DNA of 10,782 nucleotides. Origin: Candidatus Rifleibacteriota bacterium (GTDB lineage Bacteria > Muiribacteriota > Ozemobacteria > Ozemobacterales > Ozemobacteraceae). The notes under the pieces were generated by a model. The model ran no database searches. It was given only the letters and a program-made list of their open reading frames with translations, and was not told the DNA's origin. The stretch is taken from the NCBI GenBank assembly GCA_051747585.1, contig JBNJGH010000108.1, positions 1 through 10,782 of the forward strand. Reading direction: 5' to 3'. Below, one piece after another: positions 1 through 10,734 of this stretch (the stretch's first letter is position 1; every line of letters starts with the position of its first letter). The position numbers were made by a program, and so were the translations under genes.

Positions 1-114
1 AAAGAATACAAGAAAGCCAAAGAAGCCTATACCGAAGCTATAAAGGCGAATACCGATCTGGATATAATTAAACTTGCTTCTGAAAGCAAAAAACTTCTTA
101 GCAAATACAAGTGA
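1..114 (+). CDS. 3' end of a probable tetratricopeptide-repeat protein (5'-truncated by the window edge)
   Basis: Frame 1 is open from base 1: KEYKKAKEAYTEAIKANTDLDIIKLASESKKLLSKYK*. YKKAKEAYTEAI matches the TPR helix-B pattern (Y..A...Y..A). The TGA at 112-114 overlaps the next GTG start (GTGA at 111-114). Confidence 0.65.
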   Translation, partial: KEYKKAKEAYTEAIKANTDLDIIKLASESKKLLSKYK

Positions 115-1073
115 CCGAAACTAATCGAAATTTTAAAGGTTCGACTCTTATAACCGCCATCGTTGGCTGGGTTTGTTTTTTTCTTATTTTTCGCCTTGCC
201 GGGCAGCAAATAACCATAGACAGCAAGGCTGCAGCCTATTTTTTATCTGCATCCATGCTGGTTATTCTATCTGTATGGGTTGTTAAAGGTTTTTCAAAAC
301 TTGATTTAAGCAGACAGATATATCTTTTAATTGGAGTAGCAGGCCTTGTAATAGTTTTTACTGCAGCAGGCCCTCTGGTTAGACGTGCAGAACTGATAAA
401 CCAGACTTCTGCAGCACCTGGCGAACTTTTGTTTCTAACATGTCGCTACAATATTCTCCAACCCGGCGTCGAAAAAATAGTTTTACCGATTAGAAACAAA
501 ATTTTCGAAGAAATCTCAGAGTTTGGCTCAGGATTATTTAAAGAAGCTGTTCACTTGATAATAATTTTATCGATCGCTCAGCTTGTTCTGGCATCAGGGG
601 TAGGCCTCTGGATAGCAAAAGGAATAGACAAACTGAGCCATCTGATTCCAATTGCTCTGGTTGCCACAATCGCCGATATCTGGAGTGTATCTGCCGGGGC
701 AACTGCCAAAATAATAATTTCTCCTCATATTAACTATTTTCTTTTACGTTTTCCTCTAATTACTGACAATGAAATTCCGTATCTTATAGGTCTTACAGAT
801 TTTCTCTTTTTTGCCATATTCTTTCAGGCATCAATAAGATACGGGCTGGGAACATTGAAAAACACATTGTTACTTTCTGCTTCTTTTGTTATTGCTTTCT
901 CTGCAGCAATCATAACTTCAAAAGGGCTGCCGGTATTGCCATTCATGGCGATTATTTTTGTAGCAGGCAATTACAAAAATCTTGAAATCGACAAGAAAGA
1001 AATGAAACTGGTTTTTGTATTTTTGCTTGTTGTACTGGCAATTTTTGCTGCTATTACATATATTATACACTGA
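111..1073 (+). CDS. Polytopic membrane protein, putative presenilin/signal peptide peptidase-like (A22-type) intramembrane aspartyl protease
   Basis: 320-aa ORF with many hydrophobic segments. Membrane-embedded Asp motifs IADIWSV (D189) and IGLTDFLF (D230), followed by LPVLP (273-277), occur in the same order as the YD / GxGD / PALP motifs. The CDS is well supported; the function is inferred. Confidence 0.6.
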   Translation: MTETNRNFKGSTLITAIVGWVCFFLIFRLAGQQITIDSKAAAYFLSASMLVILSVWVVKGFSKLDLSRQIYLLIGVAGLVIVFTAAGPLVRRAELINQTSAAPGELLFLTCRYNILQPGVEKIVLPIRNKIFEEISEFGSGLFKEAVHLIIILSIAQLVLASGVGLWIAKGIDKLSHLIPIALVATIADIWSVSAGATAKIIISPHINYFLLRFPLITDNEIPYLIGLTDFLFFAIFFQASIRYGLGTLKNTLLLSASFVIAFSAAIITSKGLPVLPFMAIIFVAGNYKNLEIDKKEMKLVFVFLLVVLAIFAAITYIIH

Positions 1074-1080
1074 CTAGAAA

Positions 1081-1087
1081 AGGGAGG
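1081..1087 (+). promoter_or_regulatory. Shine-Dalgarno site of dapF
   Basis: AGGGAGG lies 5 nt upstream of the ATG at 1093. Confidence 0.8.
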
Positions 1088-1092
1088 CGCTT

Positions 1093-1959
1093 ATGATTGG
1101 ATTTCGCAAACTGCATGGCCTTGGCAATTGTTTCATTTTCTTTGATGAATGCTTTCAACAGCTGGAATTTTTGAAAGAATCAAAATCGGTCCAACTGCTT
1201 TGTGACCCTGCCAGAGGTCTTGGTGCCGATGGCCTGGTATTTGTCCAGAATCCAATTAATCTCCAGCACCACTGTCGCATGCAAATATTTAATTCAGATG
1301 GTAGCGAAGCCGAAATGTGCGGCAATGCGATTCGAGGTGTTGCTCATATTTTCAATAAATTGCAGCTCGGCGTAAATCCGGTCTTAATTGAAACAACGAA
1401 GGGTACAACCGAAGTAAATTTCATCGGCGTAAGACATGGAGAATCATTCTACCGGGCAGAGATTGGAAAGCCTGATTTTGATCTGGTTGCCAGTGGCGAA
1501 CTTGTCAAACAGGAATACCGGAAAGAATTGAAATTTAAAGACCAGATTTTCACTCCGGTTTACGTGAATGTGGGAAACCCACATGCAGTTATTTTCTGTA
1601 AATCCCCTATGAGTAGCGATGATATGAGAAAGGCGGGCGCATGGCTCGAATCTCATCCCAATCACCCCCGCAATATCAATGTCGAATTTGTAGAGGTAAT
1701 TTCTAAAAACGAAGCAAAAGTAAATGTCTGGGAACGGGGTTGCGGCATGACCCAGGCCTGTGGCACCGGCGCCTGCGCAGTAGCAGCAGCTGGAATTTCA
1801 CACAACATCTTTAATGATTCGGTCAGTATCAACATGCCCGGCGGCAATTTAAAAATCGAGCAGAGCAAAAACGGAGAAATTTCCATGACCGGACCTGTTC
1901 AGGAAGTTGCCATCGGAAACATCAGCTCAAGCTTTATAAGCAGACTCTACCAGGATTAA
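1093..1959 (+). CDS. dapF: Diaminopimelate epimerase
   Basis: Motifs KLHGLGN, GADG, FNSDGSEAEMCGNAIR (first catalytic Cys), VGNPH, NVEFV, WERG and TQACGTGACA (second catalytic Cys). The length of 288 aa is typical. Confidence 0.96.
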   Translation: MIGFRKLHGLGNCFIFFDECFQQLEFLKESKSVQLLCDPARGLGADGLVFVQNPINLQHHCRMQIFNSDGSEAEMCGNAIRGVAHIFNKLQLGVNPVLIETTKGTTEVNFIGVRHGESFYRAEIGKPDFDLVASGELVKQEYRKELKFKDQIFTPVYVNVGNPHAVIFCKSPMSSDDMRKAGAWLESHPNHPRNINVEFVEVISKNEAKVNVWERGCGMTQACGTGACAVAAAGISHNIFNDSVSINMPGGNLKIEQSKNGEISMTGPVQEVAIGNISSSFISRLYQD

Positions 1960-1965
1960 CTTACA

Positions 1966-3438
1966 ATGCATAGCAAAAGATTTTCTTTATTATTTTTGTT
2001 TTTATTTTTGTTCAACTACAGCGCAGTATTCGCTGCCGATCGCCTGCCGGTGATTGCCGGATCTTTTTATCCAGCAGATAAAGCAGAAATCAATCAGCAA
2101 ATCAAGAGTTTTTTGTCAGAAATATCGACAAAAACTCAAATAGAACCCGACGCAGACTTGATTACTATAATTGTACCCCATGCCGGCTGGATTTATTCAG
2201 GCAAAACCGCGGCAAGAGCGTTTAAAGCTATTAAAGATATTAAATTTAGTGATTGTATTTTTGTCGGAGTAGACCACAGAGTTGGCCTTGCAGCTATTGG
2301 ATTATGGCCCGATGGGAATTACTTAACCCCGATAGGGAAAACACCTGTTTCTGAGTTTTTAACGGCAAAACTAATAGAAAAGTCAGAAAAAATAATTTCA
2401 TCCCCCCCGCTGCACAGCAAAGAACACAGCCTTGAAGTGCTGTTGCCTTTTTTTCAGCATTTTTTTCCCGAAAAACCCGCTGTTTTTTCTGTTTGTTCCG
2501 GCCCGACCGATAACGGAATCATTTTTGCTGATGCTCTGGCAGAAATACTGCCTGATCGCCCCGGCAAAACTTTATTGATTGTTTCTACTGACTGGTCCCA
2601 TTATCATTCAGAGGCTAAAGCAGAAAAACTTGATAAAAACGCAATAAAATCGGTACTTAATTTTGACAAAAAAACTCTGCTAAAGGATTGCCACAATAAG
2701 AAGGCCGAGCTATGCGGCCTTAATGGCGTTATTTGCGCCATGCATCTTATGAAACAAGCCTCGTCTACTGCCCGGCTACTTGAATATACTGATTCTTCAA
2801 AGGCTTCCGGCGACGCAAGCCGGGTGGTTGGTTACGCTGCTATTTTAATGCAGGGTTACAAGAATAGTATTTCAGGGAAACTCCCAACTACAAAGGAGAA
2901 CAAAAAAATGACTTTTGAACAGGAAGCACTGCAAACTGTGAGAAGAACTCTCGAAGCCCATCTTCAAGGCAAACCGATTCCGGATTTCAAGTTCAACCAT
3001 GAAAAATTCCAGCAAAAATACGGAGTTTTCGTAACCTTGAAAAAGGGTGACGAACTGCGCGGTTGTATCGGGTTTATAAAAGGCATTGAACCGCTTGCTG
3101 ATGCAATTCCTGAAATGGCTATTTCTGCCGCAACAAAAGACCCCAGATTCAATCCGATAACCTATGAAGAATTAAAAGATATTAAAATCGAAATATCTGT
3201 TTTGACACCAATGACACCAGTTGAAAAGATAGATGAAATAGAAATAGGCAAACACGGTCTAATGCTCCAACTCGGGCCAAATTCCGGTTTATTGCTGCCC
3301 CAGGTTCCCGTAGAATGGGACTGGGATGTAAAAGAATTTCTCGACAATCTCTGCCTCAAAGCAGGGTTGCCACCTGGCGCTCACAAACATCCCCAGGCAA
3401 AGCTCGAAAAATTTTCCGCCCAGGTCTTTTCCGAATAA
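1966..3438 (+). CDS. amrB/amrA: AmmeMemoRadiSam system protein B (Memo-like) fused to protein A (AMMECR1 domain), with a predicted N-terminal signal peptide
   Basis: Memo motifs: AGSFYP, PHAGWIYSG, EHSLEV, STDWSHY, LCG, SGDASRVVGY. AMMECR1 motifs: GVFVTL, LRGCIG, AATKDPRF, IEISVL, GLLLPQV, LCLKAG. The N-terminus MHSKRFSLLFLFLFLFNYSAVFA looks like a Sec signal peptide. Confidence 0.9.
   Translation: MHSKRFSLLFLFLFLFNYSAVFAADRLPVIAGSFYPADKAEINQQIKSFLSEISTKTQIEPDADLITIIVPHAGWIYSGKTAARAFKAIKDIKFSDCIFVGVDHRVGLAAIGLWPDGNYLTPIGKTPVSEFLTAKLIEKSEKIISSPPLHSKEHSLEVLLPFFQHFFPEKPAVFSVCSGPTDNGIIFADALAEILPDRPGKTLLIVSTDWSHYHSEAKAEKLDKNAIKSVLNFDKKTLLKDCHNKKAELCGLNGVICAMHLMKQASSTARLLEYTDSSKASGDASRVVGYAAILMQGYKNSISGKLPTTKENKKMTFEQEALQTVRRTLEAHLQGKPIPDFKFNHEKFQQKYGVFVTLKKGDELRGCIGFIKGIEPLADAIPEMAISAATKDPRFNPITYEELKDIKIEISVLTPMTPVEKIDEIEIGKHGLMLQLGPNSGLLLPQVPVEWDWDVKEFLDNLCLKAGLPPGAHKHPQAKLEKFSAQVFSE
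2893..2910 (+). promoter_or_regulatory. Internal Shine-Dalgarno plus in-frame ATG at the start of the AMMECR1 domain
   Basis: AAGGAG (2893-2898), a 9-nt A-rich spacer, then ATG at 2908-2910, which is codon 315 of the fusion. Confidence 0.55.
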
Positions 3439-3460
3439 ATTTCCGGGGGCTACTCCTTAT

Positions 3461-3490
3461 TTGACGCTTTTTAAAAGCCTGTGTTAAACT
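3461..3490 (+). promoter_or_regulatory. Putative sigma70-type promoter of the pilin cassette
   Basis: -35 TTGACG (3461-3466), 18-bp spacer, extended -10 TGnTAAACT (3482-3490). It lies in the only sizeable intergenic gap of the + strand run. Confidence 0.65.
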
Positions 3491-3535
3491 TAATAATTAG
3501 ATTTGAGTTTCCCTTTACAAGGGTGGGAGAAAAGA

Positions 3536-5947
3536 ATGAACAGAAGAGGGTTTGCCTATGTAGTGGCCGTTCTTATTCTTGGTCTGCTTGCTTTTATGGG
3601 AATGTTTTTAATGCAGAGCAGTACTGCCGAATACTCCCAGTCAGCTATTTCTGTCTACAGAACAATGGCGCGGCAACTCGCCGAAGCAGCAGCCGATGAG
3701 GCATTTGTAATGCTGGAAGAACGCTTTCAGGACAAATCAACCGATGGGCCCTTTCAACTGCTTCTCCATCAGGCAGCCTCGTCACAGATGCCAGCAGATG
3801 GCGGAGTAACCGGCTTGAACCCGACTTTGCTCGGTGATTTTTCCGATATGAAAGATAAAGTCACTCAAGCTTTAACCCTCAAAGACTACCACATGACCAG
3901 GGCCGGTTTTGAGATCGAAAAAATCATTCCAAATATCAAAGACCTCAGACCTATAGATCAAGGTCCTTTAAATGATCGGGACAACTATTACCGTTCACCC
4001 GATCGCACCGAACCATTTGATAACGCCTATTCGAGAGACTGGTATTTAACTTTAAAGCTTGATGTTACCATTGCCCTTCATAAAAAGCGTACTCTTAAGA
4101 TTGATTACACTATTTCAAAAGATGTTAAGTTACTTAACTTAGGCCCTATTGGGCGTAACTTCAGTTTGTTCAGCATTCTAACTCATCGCATTCCTTCGGC
4201 AGATGCAGCTACAGTTCAAAACGTCATCAGAAATGAGATGAATTCACCCGACACCCGTGGCGGAAGACTTGTTTTGTGGAACCAACCTTTTCAATCAAGG
4301 GTTTATCTGCACGGGCCATCTATTATCGCCCTCGAAAACCCGGAACTTGCACGAGACAGACAAGGTTACGGTGCTTACAACCTTTTCGGAGAAGATAACT
4401 CCAGGCCAGGGCCCAACAGCGCATTTCAATATTCAGATACTTTTTATGGTTTTTCATATTATCCCACCCTCGGACGCGCTTTGTTTCCACCGGATAATGC
4501 CCGCCACACTCTTGGGCTGATTTTTGGCCTTTCCGAACCCAAACCCGATAAAGCTGACAGCGCAGACATGGCGGCAAACTACCCTAACTTTGGCGCCCAT
4601 TCTACTATAAAAGGCGGACTTCTGCCCAGTCGTGACATCAGCTTCTGGGAGAAGCTGGGAAATATCGACTCAAACGGCATTCAAGATACCTACTTCAGAG
4701 GAACAAATGTTAATCAAAAATTTCTGCCGGCAGGGCCTTTCTGCCGAACACCATGGAAGTATGTTTCGCCCCTTTTTGACGGCGAAGACAGATATCTGCC
4801 CAACAGCACCGTTGATTATTCCGAAGCCTATCGCAAGGAATTCCCCGAAGATGATGAATATCTAAGACTTGAACACCGTTGGCTCGAAGACGATTCTGAT
4901 GTTGCCAAAGCCACACAAATTTATGCAAGGGCCTATAAGGTCGAACTTAACAACGTAACCAACAGCATTAAAACTCCTCCTTCTGAAGAGCTGCTTGAAT
5001 TTTCTTTGAGCTACTACAATGATCCCGAACCTGAAACTTTACTTGGTAAAATCGGCGGCGTGTTCTCAAATCTCGGCTCAAAGCTATGGAATCGTTTAAC
5101 TTTACCTTTTCAGGCTGTTGGCGTTCTTGCCAGTCCACTTATTGGCCGGATTTTCGGTGAGGGGGAAGACAGCTACCTTGATGCGTCAACCGAACAGAAC
5201 TTTGAAAATCTTTTCCCCGAAAATTTTAAGTTTAACATGCGTAAAGTTGTCACCAGAAAAATTAAAGACCAGGCCGACATACCCACTGATGAAAAAGGCA
5301 GATGGGTCTTGAACGGAGTTTACTGGCTCGACAGTTTACAAGTTGATTTACCTGTTACTTATGTAGGAACCGGAACCATTCTAGTTACTAAATATGACCC
5401 TGCGAAACCAATGACAATTAAAGAGAGTATCGTAGCTCTTAAAGCCGAAGATAACTTTACTCCTCTTGGCCATTTAAATATTATCTATCACCCTTACAGT
5501 TCTTCGGCCACAGATATAAGCGACCGACTACTTAATATCGAGGGTTCGGGAATAACTATCGAAGCCAGCCTTTATTCATGTTACGGAATTAAATCCAGTG
5601 AGGGAAATATTCTTGACCCGACTACTCTTGGAATGGATCCAAGCCAGACTCTGGACCAGTGGAAGGAAAACGGCTTCTTTACCCGCCTGAATTCTATTAC
5701 CAATATTATTATGGGTAATTATGTAAATTTTTACATGAGTAAGGATCACCAGAGAGGTGATATCTGGGTTGTCCATAATATAAACAGCCCGGTTTATTTC
5801 AATCAACCCAGTACAAATAATTACGAGATAGTTCAAAAAGAAATAGACGCTTCCGAAGCCGGAAGAAACAAATACGAAATGATGGTTCACGAATTTTTCA
5901 TGAGTCCCAAAATTCAACATGTTGCAACAATTGGCGGTTCTGACTAA
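3536..5947 (+). CDS. Large (803 aa) PilX/GspK-like minor pilin with an uncharacterised C-terminal region
   Basis: ATG 3536 is preferred over TTG 3503 because of the SD GGGAGA at 3525-3530. MNRRG|FAYVVAVLILGLLAFMG is a class III signal peptide without E5, followed by the PilX-type helix ARQLAEAAADEA. Confidence 0.75.
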   Translation: MNRRGFAYVVAVLILGLLAFMGMFLMQSSTAEYSQSAISVYRTMARQLAEAAADEAFVMLEERFQDKSTDGPFQLLLHQAASSQMPADGGVTGLNPTLLGDFSDMKDKVTQALTLKDYHMTRAGFEIEKIIPNIKDLRPIDQGPLNDRDNYYRSPDRTEPFDNAYSRDWYLTLKLDVTIALHKKRTLKIDYTISKDVKLLNLGPIGRNFSLFSILTHRIPSADAATVQNVIRNEMNSPDTRGGRLVLWNQPFQSRVYLHGPSIIALENPELARDRQGYGAYNLFGEDNSRPGPNSAFQYSDTFYGFSYYPTLGRALFPPDNARHTLGLIFGLSEPKPDKADSADMAANYPNFGAHSTIKGGLLPSRDISFWEKLGNIDSNGIQDTYFRGTNVNQKFLPAGPFCRTPWKYVSPLFDGEDRYLPNSTVDYSEAYRKEFPEDDEYLRLEHRWLEDDSDVAKATQIYARAYKVELNNVTNSIKTPPSEELLEFSLSYYNDPEPETLLGKIGGVFSNLGSKLWNRLTLPFQAVGVLASPLIGRIFGEGEDSYLDASTEQNFENLFPENFKFNMRKVVTRKIKDQADIPTDEKGRWVLNGVYWLDSLQVDLPVTYVGTGTILVTKYDPAKPMTIKESIVALKAEDNFTPLGHLNIIYHPYSSSATDISDRLLNIEGSGITIEASLYSCYGIKSSEGNILDPTTLGMDPSQTLDQWKENGFFTRLNSITNIIMGNYVNFYMSKDHQRGDIWVVHNINSPVYFNQPSTNNYEIVQKEIDASEAGRNKYEMMVHEFFMSPKIQHVATIGGSD

Positions 5948-6414
5948 TGACAATAAATTTTAACAAAAAAACAGGGTTTACTACCCCCGAACTTTTAATG
6001 ACATTGGTAGTTTTTTCTTTTGGTCTTTTGCCGCTTATAGTTTTATTTCAAAGTAGTCACAAACAGACAGCTCAGGCAAAAAACCTGATGATAGCTCAGA
6101 GTCTGGGTAGAACAATCATAAGTGAGGTAAAAGCGCTCGGGTTTAAAAAACTCGAGAAGGAGATGACAAATCCCGAGCTTGATATAGTTCATGTCGGAAG
6201 ACGTGTCGAAGGACCGCTGGTTGAAAGTGATCCTGAAACAATAATGTACCCCGATTATTACAAAAGATTTTTTACAAGTATTAAACTCGAGAAAGCCAGT
6301 ACCGATGACAATAAAAAAATTCGTGTCGAACTGGATATTGAATGGCAGGAACCTGATCGTAAATTCAATCTTGGTTTTGGAACTGTAGTGGTAAAATATG
6401 CAACTCAAAGCTGA
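5947..6414 (+). CDS. Prepilin-type N-terminal cleavage/methylation protein (PilV/GspI-like minor pilin)
   Basis: KKTG|FTTPELLMTLVVFSFGLLPL carries E5. The C-terminal KKIRVELDIEW strand resembles PilV-like pilins. The start overlaps the upstream stop (TAATG). Confidence 0.8.
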   Translation: MTINFNKKTGFTTPELLMTLVVFSFGLLPLIVLFQSSHKQTAQAKNLMIAQSLGRTIISEVKALGFKKLEKEMTNPELDIVHVGRRVEGPLVESDPETIMYPDYYKRFFTSIKLEKASTDDNKKIRVELDIEWQEPDRKFNLGFGTVVVKYATQS

Positions 6415-7165
6415 AAATACTAAAAAAGGGTTTACCCTTGTAGAAGCAATGGTTGTTATGGCAATACTCACCCTGTTAATGGGATTCGCCTGGCGCTTTT
6501 ATTTCGGTGGCCGAGAAACCATGCGCCACACTGTCAGTCAAAGTCAGGTTCAGGCAGATACCAGAATTTTTCTTGACCATCTCGAAGAAGAGATGGCTTC
6601 CTGTTATCGCTTTTCTGAGGTAAACAACGAAGAGAATAAATTCAGCTTTTACTCATTTGCCTATGGTAGAACCCCTCTAGATGAAGTTCTTTACGATTCA
6701 ACCGGGAAACCAAGAACAACCGGAGCCGATAGTGATGCTCAGATCAAAGCAGTCAAATATGAATACAGCTGGGCAGACAACAAGGTCACCAAGAAGCGAA
6801 CTCCCGGATGGCTCTTGTTTTTGCGAGATCCGATGGAATTTCGCGAAGGAGATCCGGATCATTTTATCAACCGCTATAACAAAATGGAAAAAACAGTCTT
6901 AAGAAACATCGAAGACTTCGAAGTAAAGGGTTATTCACAGATAACCGACCCGACAACTCTTACTGTTACAACGACCCCCGTAACCGAAGACAACCATGAC
7001 GAAACGGCTTTTGTCGTCCTTAGAATTCACACCCGTAAAGCTGAAGCAAAAAATCAACGTGACGAAGAACTCGATATAGTTACCAAATTTTACAGTCAAA
7101 CCAGACTGGCAGAAATTTCTAATCCAGATTTCTTCTGCACGACAGACCAACAGGGACGTTTCTGA
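6398..7165 (+). CDS. Prepilin-type N-terminal cleavage/methylation protein (PilW/GspJ-like minor pilin)
   Basis: Canonical KKG|FTLVEAMVVMAILTLLMG, followed by a long helix (QVQADTRIFLDHLEEEM). 17-nt overlap with the upstream gene. Confidence 0.85.
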   Translation: MQLKAENTKKGFTLVEAMVVMAILTLLMGFAWRFYFGGRETMRHTVSQSQVQADTRIFLDHLEEEMASCYRFSEVNNEENKFSFYSFAYGRTPLDEVLYDSTGKPRTTGADSDAQIKAVKYEYSWADNKVTKKRTPGWLLFLRDPMEFREGDPDHFINRYNKMEKTVLRNIEDFEVKGYSQITDPTTLTVTTTPVTEDNHDETAFVVLRIHTRKAEAKNQRDEELDIVTKFYSQTRLAEISNPDFFCTTDQQGRF

Positions 7166-7965
7166 TGGATAAAAAATGGCCGGTAATTGCAATAACGCTC
7201 ATTCTTATTCTTTTAATTTATAACTTTGTCTCCAGCATTTTCAAATCTGATCAAAAAAGATTCGATCATAACCGTATCTATGTTGATTATTCTGATTACC
7301 GCCATACCAAAAAGAAACCTAAAAAATCCGCTTTTAAAACTTCTACCAGAAGAAATCCAAATGCTTATAAAGCTGCCAGAGAAGCAAAAGAAATTCAGAG
7401 AAAAATGTTTTCTAATGTTATGACTGCTACCATAAGCTCATATAATGACTATATGGATAAAGCACTTAAAAACGTGCCTTCGCCTGTAGAAAAACTGCCC
7501 AAACCTAAAGCATCCCAGCAATACAAAAAATTTGTAAAATTAGCTAGAGAGCCGGTTATAGAATACGAGTCGGGACTCTCATATTTCGTATCGGGAAACT
7601 ATGATCAAGCTCTGGTTAAGTTCCAGGAAGCTTTACAAAATGTCGATCCCCTCGACGTTAAACATCGCATAGATATTTTTGGCATGATTGCCGAATGCTA
7701 TATGAAACTTAACAACGACAGAGGTTACGTTCAATATAAGGTTAAACAGGTTCGCATGAAACGAAAAATGCAACGTGTTCTAAAACAAGCATTTCCCGGC
7801 AAAAAGGATCTGATTGAAAAAGTTGACTGGGAAACTACCCAGCAGGCTTCAAAAAATCTTTTAAGAGTTAGATCTATGGCCACGAGAGTTAATTCGGCGG
7901 CTATGCAGAAAATGCTCAAAAGAGCCGAACTCGATCTGGAAGTAGCTCGCAAAGTAACTTATTAG
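7165..7965 (+). CDS. Membrane-anchored, basic TPR-containing protein
   Basis: N-terminal hydrophobic helix WPVIAITLILILLIYNFV. TPR-like segments YESGLSYFVSGNYDQALVKFQEAL and IFGMIAECYMKL. TGATG coupling at 7163-7167. Confidence 0.75.
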   Translation: MDKKWPVIAITLILILLIYNFVSSIFKSDQKRFDHNRIYVDYSDYRHTKKKPKKSAFKTSTRRNPNAYKAAREAKEIQRKMFSNVMTATISSYNDYMDKALKNVPSPVEKLPKPKASQQYKKFVKLAREPVIEYESGLSYFVSGNYDQALVKFQEALQNVDPLDVKHRIDIFGMIAECYMKLNNDRGYVQYKVKQVRMKRKMQRVLKQAFPGKKDLIEKVDWETTQQASKNLLRVRSMATRVNSAAMQKMLKRAELDLEVARKVTY

Positions 7966-8270: not shown

Positions 8271-10376
8271 TCAGGAATCTGACAATACAGCTTTTCTGGA
8301 AAGATTTACTCTTCCCTGGCCGTCTATTTCGATTACTTTAACCTTAACTTCGTCACCGATATTGACCACATCTTCAACTTTGTTAACTCTATTGTTATCA
8401 AGTTGGCTGATGTGGATCATGCCTTCGATTCCGGGAAGAATTTCGACAAAAGCACCGAATTTCATAATTCTTTTTACTTTGCCGTTGTAAACTTGTCCGA
8501 CTTCTGCATCTTCGGTAACCTGTTTTACCATGAAGATAGCCTTGTCATTAGCCTGAGAGTCAGGGCTGATAATAAGAACTCTGCCATCATCGTTAGTTTC
8601 AATCTGGACGCCGGTTTCTTCGGTAATCTTGCGGATTGTTTTTCCACCGGGGCCAATCAGGTTGCGAATTTTCTCCGGATCAATATCCATTGAAATGATT
8701 CTTGGCGCATATTCTGAAAGCTCTTTTTCTGGTTCCTGGATAGTGTTTTTCATTTCATTCAAAATGTGTAATCTACCATCCTTAGCCTGATTCAGAGCTT
8801 GCTTCATTATATCGAGAGTAACACCGGTAATTTTGATATCCATTTGCAGGGCATTGACACCCTTTTCGGTACCGGCAACTTTGAAATCCATATCGCCGAA
8901 ATGATCTTCGTCACCAAGAATATCACTAAGAACTTTATAGTTTTCGCCTTCTTTAATCAGACCCATGGCAATACCGGCAACCGGAGCCTTTAAAGGAACT
9001 CCTGCATTCATCATTGCCATACTGCCGGAGCAAACAGAAGCCATAGAAGAGCTACCATTGCTCGCAAGAATTTCACTTACAACTCTTACAGTGTAAGGGA
9101 ACTCTTCAGGAGTAGGCATAACTTTACTCAAGGATCTTTCGGCTAACGCACCATGACCGATCTCACGACGACCCGGGCCACGCATTGGTCTTGCTTCACC
9201 AACCGAGAACGGTGGGAAATTATAATGAAGTAGAAATTTTTTCTTGTATCCTTCATCGAGACCATCGACTATCTGAGAATCACCACTTGCTCCCAGAGTA
9301 ACCACTCCCAGGGATTGTGTTTGTCCACGGGTAAACAATGCCGAGCCGTGAGTTCTGGGCAAGAAGCCTACGGCACACGAGATTGGTCTGATTTCTTCAA
9401 GTCTTCTACCATCAATTCTATAGCTATCCTCAAGAATCATTCTTCGCATTTCATGTGAAGTTGTTTCTTTAAGAATTCTGCCGGCAGCTTCAGATTTTTC
9501 TTCAGCAGTTTCTTCGCCGAATTTTTCTATCAGAAGCTCGTCAAGCCTGGTTTTAATAACTGAGAATTTTTGATTTCTTTCGCTTTTTTCTGCAATAGTT
9601 AAAGCGTCTTTGATTTCAGGCATCAGAGAAACTTTAACAAGCTCTTCTAATTCGGGTTCAGAAGGAAGTTCTGGAACCTGCTGTTTTTCCTTGCCAGCTT
9701 TTGCTGCAAGCTCTTTTTGTGAAGCACAGAGCTTTTTAATATTTTCATGGGCAAATGCCAGTGCTTCAAGCAGTTCGTCTTCAGAAACTTCGTCAGATCC
9801 GGATTCTACCATACTAATGGCTTCTTCAGTTCCGGCTACGATCATGTCTATGGTGCTGTTTTCGAGCTGATCGCTTGAAGGATTCAAGATCAACTGACCA
9901 TCACATTTTCCTACTCTAACTGAGCCAATTGCCTTCAACAATGGAATTTCTGAAACCATTACTGCGCAAGAAGCTGCATTCATAGCAAGGACATCAACCT
10001 GGTTAACCTTATCATAAGATAAAACATAGCTTACAAGCTGAATATCATTATGATAAGTATCCGGGAACATTGGTCTCAAAGGCCTGTCAATCAATCTACA
10101 AGTTAGAATTTCTTTGGTAGTAGGACGGCCTTCACGTTTGAAAAAACCACCGGGAATTTTACCTGCCGAATAGGTTTTTTCAGTATAATCTACGGTTAGC
10201 GGCAAAAAATCACAGCCCTCGCGCGGTTCTTTACTGCATACCACAGTCGAGAGAACGACAGAATCGCCACAACGGGCAACCACGGCACCAGATGCCTGGC
10301 CGGCCAATAAGCCTGTTTCAAAAGTTACTGTTTGATTATTTAATTCACATGCTACTATTTCTAGTTTATTCTCCAT
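8271..10376 (-). CDS. pnp: Polyribonucleotide nucleotidyltransferase (PNPase)
   Basis: Motifs DFLPLTVDY, GKIPGGFFKREGRP, RLIDRPLRP, HGSALFTRGQTQ, RREIGHG, SNGSSSMAS and GDMDFKVAG, plus KH (IGPGGKTIR) and S1 (FGAFVEI) domains. 701 aa, directly downstream of rpsO. Confidence 0.99.
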   Translation of the reverse strand: MENKLEIVACELNNQTVTFETGLLAGQASGAVVARCGDSVVLSTVVCSKEPREGCDFLPLTVDYTEKTYSAGKIPGGFFKREGRPTTKEILTCRLIDRPLRPMFPDTYHNDIQLVSYVLSYDKVNQVDVLAMNAASCAVMVSEIPLLKAIGSVRVGKCDGQLILNPSSDQLENSTIDMIVAGTEEAISMVESGSDEVSEDELLEALAFAHENIKKLCASQKELAAKAGKEKQQVPELPSEPELEELVKVSLMPEIKDALTIAEKSERNQKFSVIKTRLDELLIEKFGEETAEEKSEAAGRILKETTSHEMRRMILEDSYRIDGRRLEEIRPISCAVGFLPRTHGSALFTRGQTQSLGVVTLGASGDSQIVDGLDEGYKKKFLLHYNFPPFSVGEARPMRGPGRREIGHGALAERSLSKVMPTPEEFPYTVRVVSEILASNGSSSMASVCSGSMAMMNAGVPLKAPVAGIAMGLIKEGENYKVLSDILGDEDHFGDMDFKVAGTEKGVNALQMDIKITGVTLDIMKQALNQAKDGRLHILNEMKNTIQEPEKELSEYAPRIISMDIDPEKIRNLIGPGGKTIRKITEETGVQIETNDDGRVLIISPDSQANDKAIFMVKQVTEDAEVGQVYNGKVKRIMKFGAFVEILPGIEGMIHISQLDNNRVNKVEDVVNIGDEVKVKVIEIDGQGRVNLSRKAVLSDS

Positions 10377-10385
10377 TATTTCCCC

Positions 10386-10655
10386 TTAACGACGCAGACC
10401 TAATCTCTTGATTAACGAGAGATAGCGTTCAGAATCTTTGCGCTTGAGATATGACAGATGTCTTTTTCTCGCGCCAATCATCTTGAGTAATCCGCGTCTG
10501 GAATGATGATCTTTCGGGTTAGCTGCAAAATGAGCTGAAAGGTTATTGATTCTATTGGTAAGAATCGCAACCTGTACTTCCGGTGATCCGGTATCTTTGT
10601 CAGACAGTTTGAAATCTTCAATTACCTGACCTTTAGCATCTTTGCTGATAGACAT
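10386..10655 (-). CDS. rpsO: 30S ribosomal protein S15
   Basis: Motifs [25 protein letters not shown] and LIKRLGLRR. Starting at 10655 (MSISKD) gives the standard 89 aa, with SD AAGGAG at 10668-10663. Confidence 0.99.
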
Positions 10656-10734
10656 TTCTTTTCTCCTTAATTTGAATTGAACATCCAAGCCTCGACCTCC
10701 TGGGTTCAGAACCTAGACATACATCATGTTCGCG

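Follow-up and report, generated by a model that had tools for sequence, protein, structure and literature searches.

The locus raises the question whether a bacterium encodes an intramembrane protease of the presenilin type. The window, i.e. the whole stretch of DNA analysed, comprises 10,782 nucleotides of contig JBNJGH010000108.1 from a Candidatus Rifleibacteriota bacterium, and an earlier note, made from the letters alone, had read the open reading frame at 111..1073 as an A22-like enzyme with AD, GxTD and PVLP as variants of the motifs YD, GxGD and PAL. To our knowledge, the presenilin-type proteases studied are eukaryotic and archaeal. In MEROPS, presenilin is placed in A22A (PF01080), signal peptide peptidase (SPP) in A22B (PF04258), and the prepilin peptidases PilD, TadV and FlaK, which lack a PAL motif, in A24 (PF01478).

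Gene and predicted features

The reading frame 111..1073 on the forward strand is open, begins with GTG and encodes 320 amino acids. By eye, no obvious Shine-Dalgarno sequence precedes the start, and the alignments with homologues begin at about residue 3. When contigs from three RNA-library sets were compared with window positions 1-3500, one contig of 171 bases spanned 919-1087 and no other touched the gene. The protein sequence as a query gave no match in Pfam, NCBIfam or the PDB sequences. The features of the gene and its direct neighbours are as follows:

1..114, + strand: 3' end of a TPR gene (470 aa, N-terminus resembling a signal peptide), the remainder of which lies on contig C38, joined by an exact overlap of 99 bases
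111..1073, + strand: putative presenilin/SPP-like core, polytopic membrane protein of 320 aa; no Pfam/NCBIfam match
138..536, + strand: variable N-terminal portion (residues 10-142) with three TM helices predicted, the last of which is prolonged as a long helix and followed by an amphipathic one
549..623, + strand: helix 147-171, predicted TM5 equivalent, with which the conserved core begins (models)
633..692, + strand: helix 175-194, predicted TM6 equivalent, bearing A-D189-I-W-S-V (models and alignment)
675..677, + strand: D189, first putative catalytic Asp (87/87 close and 145/145 covered distant rows)
699..791, + strand: putative catalytic loop with helix 197-203 (TM6a-like) and strands 211-213 and 224-227 (beta1/beta2-like); K/R-poor, predicted to face outward
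789..800, + strand: G227-L-T229-D230, GxGD equivalent with Thr as third residue; D230 (798-800) is the second putative catalytic Asp (alignment, profiles)
852..917, + strand: helix 248-269, predicted TM8 equivalent (models)
927..968, + strand: L-P274-V-L-P277, PAL-P equivalent (LPVLP = 927-941), and helix 275-286, predicted TM9 equivalent (alignment, profiles, model)
993..1067, + strand: extra C-terminal hydrophobic helix 295-319, beyond all structural alignments to presenilin, SPPL2a and PSH
1093..1959, + strand: dapF, which usually follows the gene in Riflebacteria, here after 19 bases (Pfam/NCBIfam matches); context only

The positions of D189 (675-677), D230 (798-800) and LPVLP (927-941) in the earlier note were found to be right, and the spacing of the two aspartates, given there as about 40, amounts to 41 residues. 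Both lie within hydrophobic stretches. In the AlphaFold models, D189 is located in helix 175-194 and D230 heads helix 228-243, which agrees with the claim that they reside inside hydrophobic helices.

As a control, 243 stop-to-stop frames of the genome with at least five hydrophobic windows were inspected. Two of them showed two membrane Asp together with G-x-[GASTMV]-D, and after addition of a downstream P-x-L-P the frame 111-1073 was the only one of the 243 with the full pattern, which had been composed with this protein already in view. The Asp/Asp/PxLP pattern exceeds chance.

Conservation within Riflebacteria

The first homologue search yielded 88 proteins including the query, and those with a lineage name were Riflebacteria; the matches of the word-indexed searches, too, were almost all from this group. 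The close alignment comprised 87 of the 88 sequences, P0087 (427 aa, with a different C-terminus) being left out. D189, W191, S192, V193, G227, D230 and PVLP were invariant in 87/87 rows and position 188 was Ala in 86, while position 229 showed Thr in 82, Ser in four, Val in one and Gly in none. Columns conserved to at least 95% were concentrated in the segment TM6-loop-TM7 (31 of 69) and in PVLP-TM9 (9 of 17); the N-terminal part with 8 of 136 such columns and a mean majority frequency of 0.47 was poorly conserved.

Within the phylum, the gene was matched in 55 of 87 genomes (33 of the 44 of high quality), nearly always as a single copy and with a patchy distribution by family. A wider profile raised the number to 56 of 87, the additional genome being marginal. 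In the phylum of the genome that carries the Desulfococcaceae locus L035 (G087), a match was obtained in only 1 of 251 sampled genomes, and canonical PF04258 genes were over the cut-off in none of 301 genomes of that phylum.

A wide bacterial family

The family profile reached 628 clusters (50% identity) at E<=0.001 and 221 at E<=1e-10. The following motif counts refer to the best 150 of the 628 clusters and, at each site, to the rows covering it. The first Asp was retained in 145/145, G227 and the second Asp each in 147/147, and P274 in 145/146 rows, so that the invariance of the aspartates, whose examination the earlier note had proposed, holds for close and distant homologues alike. The third position of the second motif was Gly in 80 of 147 representatives (GxGD), Thr in 25, Ala in 18, Ser in 18 and another residue in 6. 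PALP was present in 83 and PVLP in 32 of 146 rows. Since the wide family thus mostly comprises GxGD and PALP, the motifs of the query are variants inside that family. This part of the earlier reading stood for GxTD and PVLP; AD, in contrast, is the norm family-wide, with Ala before the first Asp in 83, Val in 35 and Tyr in 0 of 145 rows. The spacing from the second Asp to the Pro was 44 in 99 of 122 family rows, compared to 48 in presenilin-1 (PS1).

Named members of the wide family include Armatimonadota and Sandaracinus amylolyticus (P0254: AD, GIGD, PALP). The ESM Atlas contributed Armatimonadota-rich clusters without names (0.92-0.94), and its A22B matches (0.84, 0.80) were taken as leads and not counted as evidence.

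Several distant homologues combine the core with further domains. Homologues of about 600 aa (L043-L047 and L054, family f11; P0107, P0116, P0142) carry an N-terminal HisKA_7TM domain (PF16927) followed by the core with GISD and PAIP; of four scanned locus proteins of the f11 type, two were over the PF16927 cut-off, one was below it and one gave no hit. These fusion genes sit upstream of a RecD2 helicase gene. P0130 (1076 aa), a single-member cluster and unconfirmed, comprises an N-terminal core (GVSD/PAIP), HAMP and a class III adenylate/guanylate cyclase. In P0127, P0129, P0137, P0158, P0176, P0198 and P0211 (about 950-1000 aa), a CarboxypepD_reg-like domain precedes the core, and three fusions of this type showed weak alpha/beta-hydrolase matches after it. 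Short homologues of about 260 aa with GTSD (L049, L050 and L052, family f8) face, in convergent orientation, a gene for a Ser/Thr kinase and one resembling tsaD. As far as domain composition goes, the fusions hint that the wide family may act in signalling or at the envelope.

Relation to presenilin by sequence

The profile of the 87 close rows matched neither Pfam nor the PDB sequences. With distant rows added, presenilin was retrieved from the PDB at E 0.0044, and profile A3 retrieved PS2 at 2.4e-6, PS1 at 3.9e-6 to 6.1e-5 and SPPL2a at 9.3e-5. In these profile alignments GxxD is matched with GLGD and PxLP with PALP. Because the GABA-A receptor gamma-2 scored 0.01 and 4.8e-4 with the family profiles, the E-values are regarded as inflated, as the proteins compared are membrane proteins. 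PSH was not retrieved by any of the family's sequence-profile searches of the PDB. The helix of the first Asp was aligned to PS1 248-276 with D189 in register with D257, contributing about 0 bits by itself. Among 123 members, 17 matched PF01080 and 3 matched PF04258 at E<=0.05; single relatives matched PF01080/A22 at 7.7e-5 (L045, PF01080, the clearest case) and 9e-4, both under the curated cut-offs. The protein itself showed no match to PF01080, PF04258 or PF06550 at E<=1, and no PF06550 match was found in the genome.

With regard to the features of A22 proteases, two conserved Asp on consecutive TM helices (TM6, TM7) were present in both models, and the PAL(P) before TM9 was present as the variant PVLP, in register with PALP of PS1. 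At the first Asp, AD was found instead of YD or a large hydrophobic residue plus D, and at the second GLTD instead of the GxGD that 80 of the 147 wide-family rows show. Judged from its sequence, the protein likely works like A22, and it is not classed as A22A or A22B because YD, GxGD and the Pfam cut-offs are not reached.

Predicted structure

AlphaFold models were obtained for the full protein (pLDDT 88.8) and for the core of residues 144-320 (pLDDT 95.3). Both showed the same order of elements: the helix with D189, a short helix, two strands, the helix with D230, a helix, PVLP and a further helix. The available text of PMC10290658 and PMC12745688 describes the corresponding layout TM6-TM6a-beta1-beta2-TM7-TM8-PAL-TM9 for PS1 and SPPL2a. 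Thus, all elements of the core fold, TM5-TM9 with TM6a and beta1/beta2, are present in the predicted model.

In Foldseek searches with both models, the first 16 rows were gamma-secretase or SPPL2a, with no row reaching E<=0.001; the full model gave TM-scores of 0.25-0.37 at an rmsd near 20 A, and the best value for the core was 0.52. VIA-align was run against 48,161 chains, a comparison in which helical bundles can score Z 13 by chance, and yielded for the full model SPPL2a at Z 13.6 (3.4 A, 188 aligned residues, model 40-291), PS2 at 10.1, PSH at 9.2 and the first unrelated chain at 6.8. The core showed the same leading families with SPPL2a at 11.8 (2.5 A, 144 aligned), PSH at 7.9, PS2 at 7.3 and the next chain at 6.2, and it matched residues 308-487 of the SPPL2a chain, which contain D351, D412 and PAL. 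FlaK was absent among the fold matches listed by VIA-align for the full and the core model. The structural alignments comprise 10-15% identity, and presenilin can be superposed on the N-terminal half in part only: the interval from the TM1-like to the TM6-like helix contains two helices only, extra helices are present at the termini, and the whole-chain TM-score does not exceed 0.37.

The comparison with presenilin and PSH structures that had been suggested therefore ranked presenilin-family proteins ahead of transporters. With SPPL2a, presenilin and PSH as the top folds, and with the motif of the second Asp and PVLP in register with presenilin, the A22-like reading was upheld.

Orientation in the membrane

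According to the positive-inside rule, loops rich in K and R are cytoplasmic. In the 87 close rows, the TM7-8 loop contained on average 2.8 K+R and the stretch following TM9 4.2, compared to 1.8 for the catalytic loop with its 33 residues and 0.2 for the segment ahead of PVLP, and 114 distant rows showed the same pattern. The loop before TM6 (169-177) is a misfit in the close rows with a K+R of 0.3, whereas the value of 1.3 in the distant rows fits. Based on this bias, the catalytic loop and PVLP are predicted to face the periplasm in an SPP-like orientation; the non-cytoplasmic TM6-TM7 loop typical of A22B is thereby predicted as well, with one loop of the close set in disagreement. For SPPL2a, the accessible part of PMC12745688 describes TM6a on the extracellular side, cleavage of type II substrates and an orientation inverted relative to presenilin. 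An enzyme in the predicted SPP orientation would cut membrane helices with a cytoplasmic N-terminus, and since the catalytic loop and PVLP would face outward, signal-peptide remnants or type II membrane anchors are the likely substrates.

Threonine at position 229

Published effects of this glycine differ between enzymes. In the portion of PMC10290658 at hand, gamma-secretase activity is described as virtually abolished by larger residues at G382/G384; in that of PMC2947513, PSH G219A was considerably slower, and in that of PMC5669866, human SPP G264A kept a high activity on HCV core. Thr is bulkier than Ala.

The distribution of the variants was followed on a quick unrooted tree of 123 core sequences, from which the fusions and the majority of both the short fragments and the near-identical rows from Riflebacteria were omitted. 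The Gly label required 10 changes, at least four of which were forced by starred branches. A single clade for the 51 non-Gly rows was rejected by the AU test (p 0.00014), for which the grouping was set by motif before the tree and the test was run after the tree had been seen. Non-Gly variants arose more than once. Since these repeated changes took place without loss of either Asp, they suggest tolerance of Thr and not decay, and Thr229 is probably a tolerated residue. The earlier note had also considered that the change from Gly to Thr could reduce activity. This is possible but not indicated by the sequences, in which several independent changes from Gly to Thr, Ser or Ala all retain both Asp.

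Genomic context

The TGA of the TPR gene (112-114) overlaps the GTG (111-113). This 4-base stop/start overlap was found in 16 of 28 loci checked and partly reflects mechanical first-start calling, for which reason it was not taken as proof of coupling. The usual order in Riflebacteria is a 185-aa protein, the TPR protein, the gene at 111-1073, dapF, Memo/AMMECR1 and a pilin-like cluster, with Tad genes upstream. The protein of about 185 aa (L011:3862-4422; L064:1450-1992) looks secreted and has no Pfam match; 45 of 51 family genomes encode it, usually at the second position ahead of the homologue. At window positions 1966-3438, a single ORF combines Memo and AMMECR1 (AmmeMemoRadiSam proteins B and A), and several relatives possess a ~180-aa ORF only. 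Positions 3503-7965 encode, in an order conserved in Riflebacteria, a PilX/GspK-like protein of 814 aa, two proteins of the pilin-like kind, of which one bears the N-methylation motif, and a TPR membrane protein. The rpsO-pnp pair at 8271-10688 on the reverse strand is ordinary.

Two cases of absence were observed. In a genome of 96% completeness (G020; locus L057, G020:C2:128000-138500), the homologue and Memo/AMMECR1 are both absent, dapF follows about 260 bases past the TPR gene, and the pilin-like cluster is kept. In genus g14, the gene occurs in 0/7 genomes, while the TPR, 185-aa and Tad genes are kept; in 5 of 6 fetched loci (L058-L063) the TPR gene abuts the Tad cluster. The dapF of the window was unmatched at E<=1e-40 in all seven g14 genomes, and the lysine/DAP route of this genus may differ. 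These losses characterise the gene as accessory and dispensable.

The neighbours were considered as substrates and rejected: the TPR and 185-aa proteins are kept in 7/7 g14 genomes without the gene, and the neighbours of distant relatives are unrelated, so the context yields no substrate. Among the neighbours there was no sign of the partners nicastrin, APH-1 and PEN-2. A role as substitute for a missing RseP or SppA was likewise rejected, since the genome shows three M50 matches and one S49 match.

Proposed function and alternatives

Altogether, we assume with a probability of roughly 0.62 that the gene encodes a stand-alone di-aspartyl intramembrane protease in SPP orientation, a homologue of presenilin and signal peptide peptidase; the assumption draws on sequence, models and analogy. 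Sequence and models show a core resembling TM5-TM9, in which the TM6-like helix bears D189, the TM7-like helix starts with D230 right behind the pair of beta-strands, and PVLP opens the TM9-like helix. By analogy with presenilin, SPPL2a and PSH, a substrate helix would enter the core, unwind and pair with the two strands and the PVLP loop, whereupon D189 and D230 would activate water for hydrolysis. From its charge bias, the site would cleave signal-peptide remnants or type II anchors from the periplasmic face. Thr229 likely narrows or reshapes the pocket beside D230 and likely does not abolish catalysis. The distribution is consistent with an accessory, single-copy and non-essential role in membrane proteolysis or signalling beside RseP-type and SppA-type proteases.

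The alternative that survives best, although we consider it unlikely, is a pseudo-protease, or a very slow enzyme, with the presenilin fold, which senses or binds a membrane helix, a peptide or an ion via its Asp pair and serves as sensor or scaffold. Such a function would fit a Thr at the site where bulky residues cripple gamma-secretase, a dispensable gene, and non-Gly relatives fused to HisKA_7TM or, in P0130 (GVSD), to HAMP and adenylate cyclase. Pseudo-enzymes usually lose catalytic residues, whereas the loss of an Asp was observed in no covered row, including all 67 non-Gly representatives whose rows extend over the second Asp. Furthermore, the strand pair, the TM6a-like helix and PxLP are all retained as the most conserved part, and cleavage by SPPL2a requires the strand pair, TM6a and a PxLP-type motif according to the available section of PMC12745688.

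Considerably less probable is a fold homologue that uses the Asp pair for non-peptide hydrolysis or for ion or solute passage, or a mere convergence of helical bundles. The identity of 10-15%, the moderate Z-scores, the Foldseek E-values above 0.001, the different N-terminal half and the alpha/beta-hydrolase-like domains of some relatives would be in line with it, but sequence profiles, Foldseek and VIA-align all rank the presenilin family first with transporters behind, and GxGD and PALP dominate the wide family at a presenilin-like spacing of second Asp and Pro. A prepilin or pseudopilin peptidase of the A24 type serving the flanking genes, as the pilin-like genes at window positions 3503-7165, the Tad genes upstream in relatives and the two Asp with GxGD of A24 enzymes could suggest, was rejected as highly improbable, since there is no PF01478 match, the genome's own A24 protein is dissimilar (hhalign probability 0.5%), two A24 genes are present in the genome and at least one in 51/51 family genomes, the pilin-like or Tad genes are kept in G020 and g14 without the gene, and the predicted outward site would lie on the wrong side for prepilin cleavage.

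Comparison with known systems

For the protease proposed here, SPPL2a/SPP (A22B; PDB 9K92, 9K93) comes closest in structure (Z 13.6 for the full model, 11.8 for the core). Both share two membrane Asp, a strand pair ahead of the second Asp, a PAL-like motif ahead of the last core helix and the predicted orientation, and presumably no cofactor subunits are needed. In contrast to SPPL2a/SPP, the query shows AD (versus a large hydrophobic residue plus D), GxTD (versus GxGD), PVLP (versus PAL) and a spacing of the aspartates of 41 (versus 61); it comprises fewer helices between the TM1 and TM6 equivalents, is extended by one helix at either end, and has neither a PA domain nor a PF04258 match.

Presenilin-1/-2 is the top sequence-profile match with TM7-TM8-PALP in register (E 2.4e-6 to 6e-5; VIA Z 10-13.4). 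Compared to it, the query is predicted in the opposite orientation, lacks the long autoproteolysed loop, and shows Thr at the G384 and Ala at the Y256 equivalent. PSH/MCMJR1 (PDB 4HYG, 4HYC, 4Y6K; PF06550) is also prokaryotic, stand-alone and of similar size (VIA Z 7.9-11.6), and PAL is non-canonical in both (PPL in PSH, PVLP in the query); PSH differs in having kept YD and GxGD, with a slow G219A variant, and it is missed by the query profile. The A24 prepilin peptidases resemble the query in being bacterial, with two Asp, a GxGD-type motif and, for the query, pilin-like genes nearby, and differ in the absence of sequence similarity, in the PAL-like motif of the query and in the predicted side of the active site.

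Significance

Raut et al. are said to have reported YD/GxGD homologues in CPR bacteria in 2021, so the presence of the clan in bacteria is not itself new. New are the Riflebacteria clade with GxTD, its predicted topology and the sensor-domain fusions of its relatives. No characterised bacterial presenilin-type enzyme was found in the literature searched, as far as its text was accessible. The expression 'bacterial presenilin homologue', which occurs in the available part of a review (PMC8396450), probably means the archaeal PSH. That the 628 clusters represent a large and unannotated third, bacterial branch of the presenilin clan, containing active proteases which repeatedly dropped the Gly of GxGD and were wired to signalling via fusions with 7TM sensors and adenylate cyclase, is a tentative and rather doubtful proposal.

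The value of the finding is tempered by the dispensability of the gene and by the bacterial homologues of the clan noted before. Nonetheless, a long-held rule from mutagenesis, according to which gamma-secretase is crippled by any residue bigger than Gly or Ala before the second Asp, would become naturally testable; Thr, Ser or Ala occurs there in 61 of 147 representatives (best 150 of 628 clusters) with both Asp intact. A direct comparison of the role of the motif is feasible between the GxTD protein and P0254, the GxGD/PALP relative from Sandaracinus amylolyticus, a species in culture. The range of intramembrane proteases in bacteria (rhomboid, S2P, A24) would be widened by a compact enzyme of this type. 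If the proposal is true, bacteria would possess a system of regulated proteolysis built on a presenilin core, and the GxTD enzyme of Riflebacteria would be a natural experiment on the role of G384.
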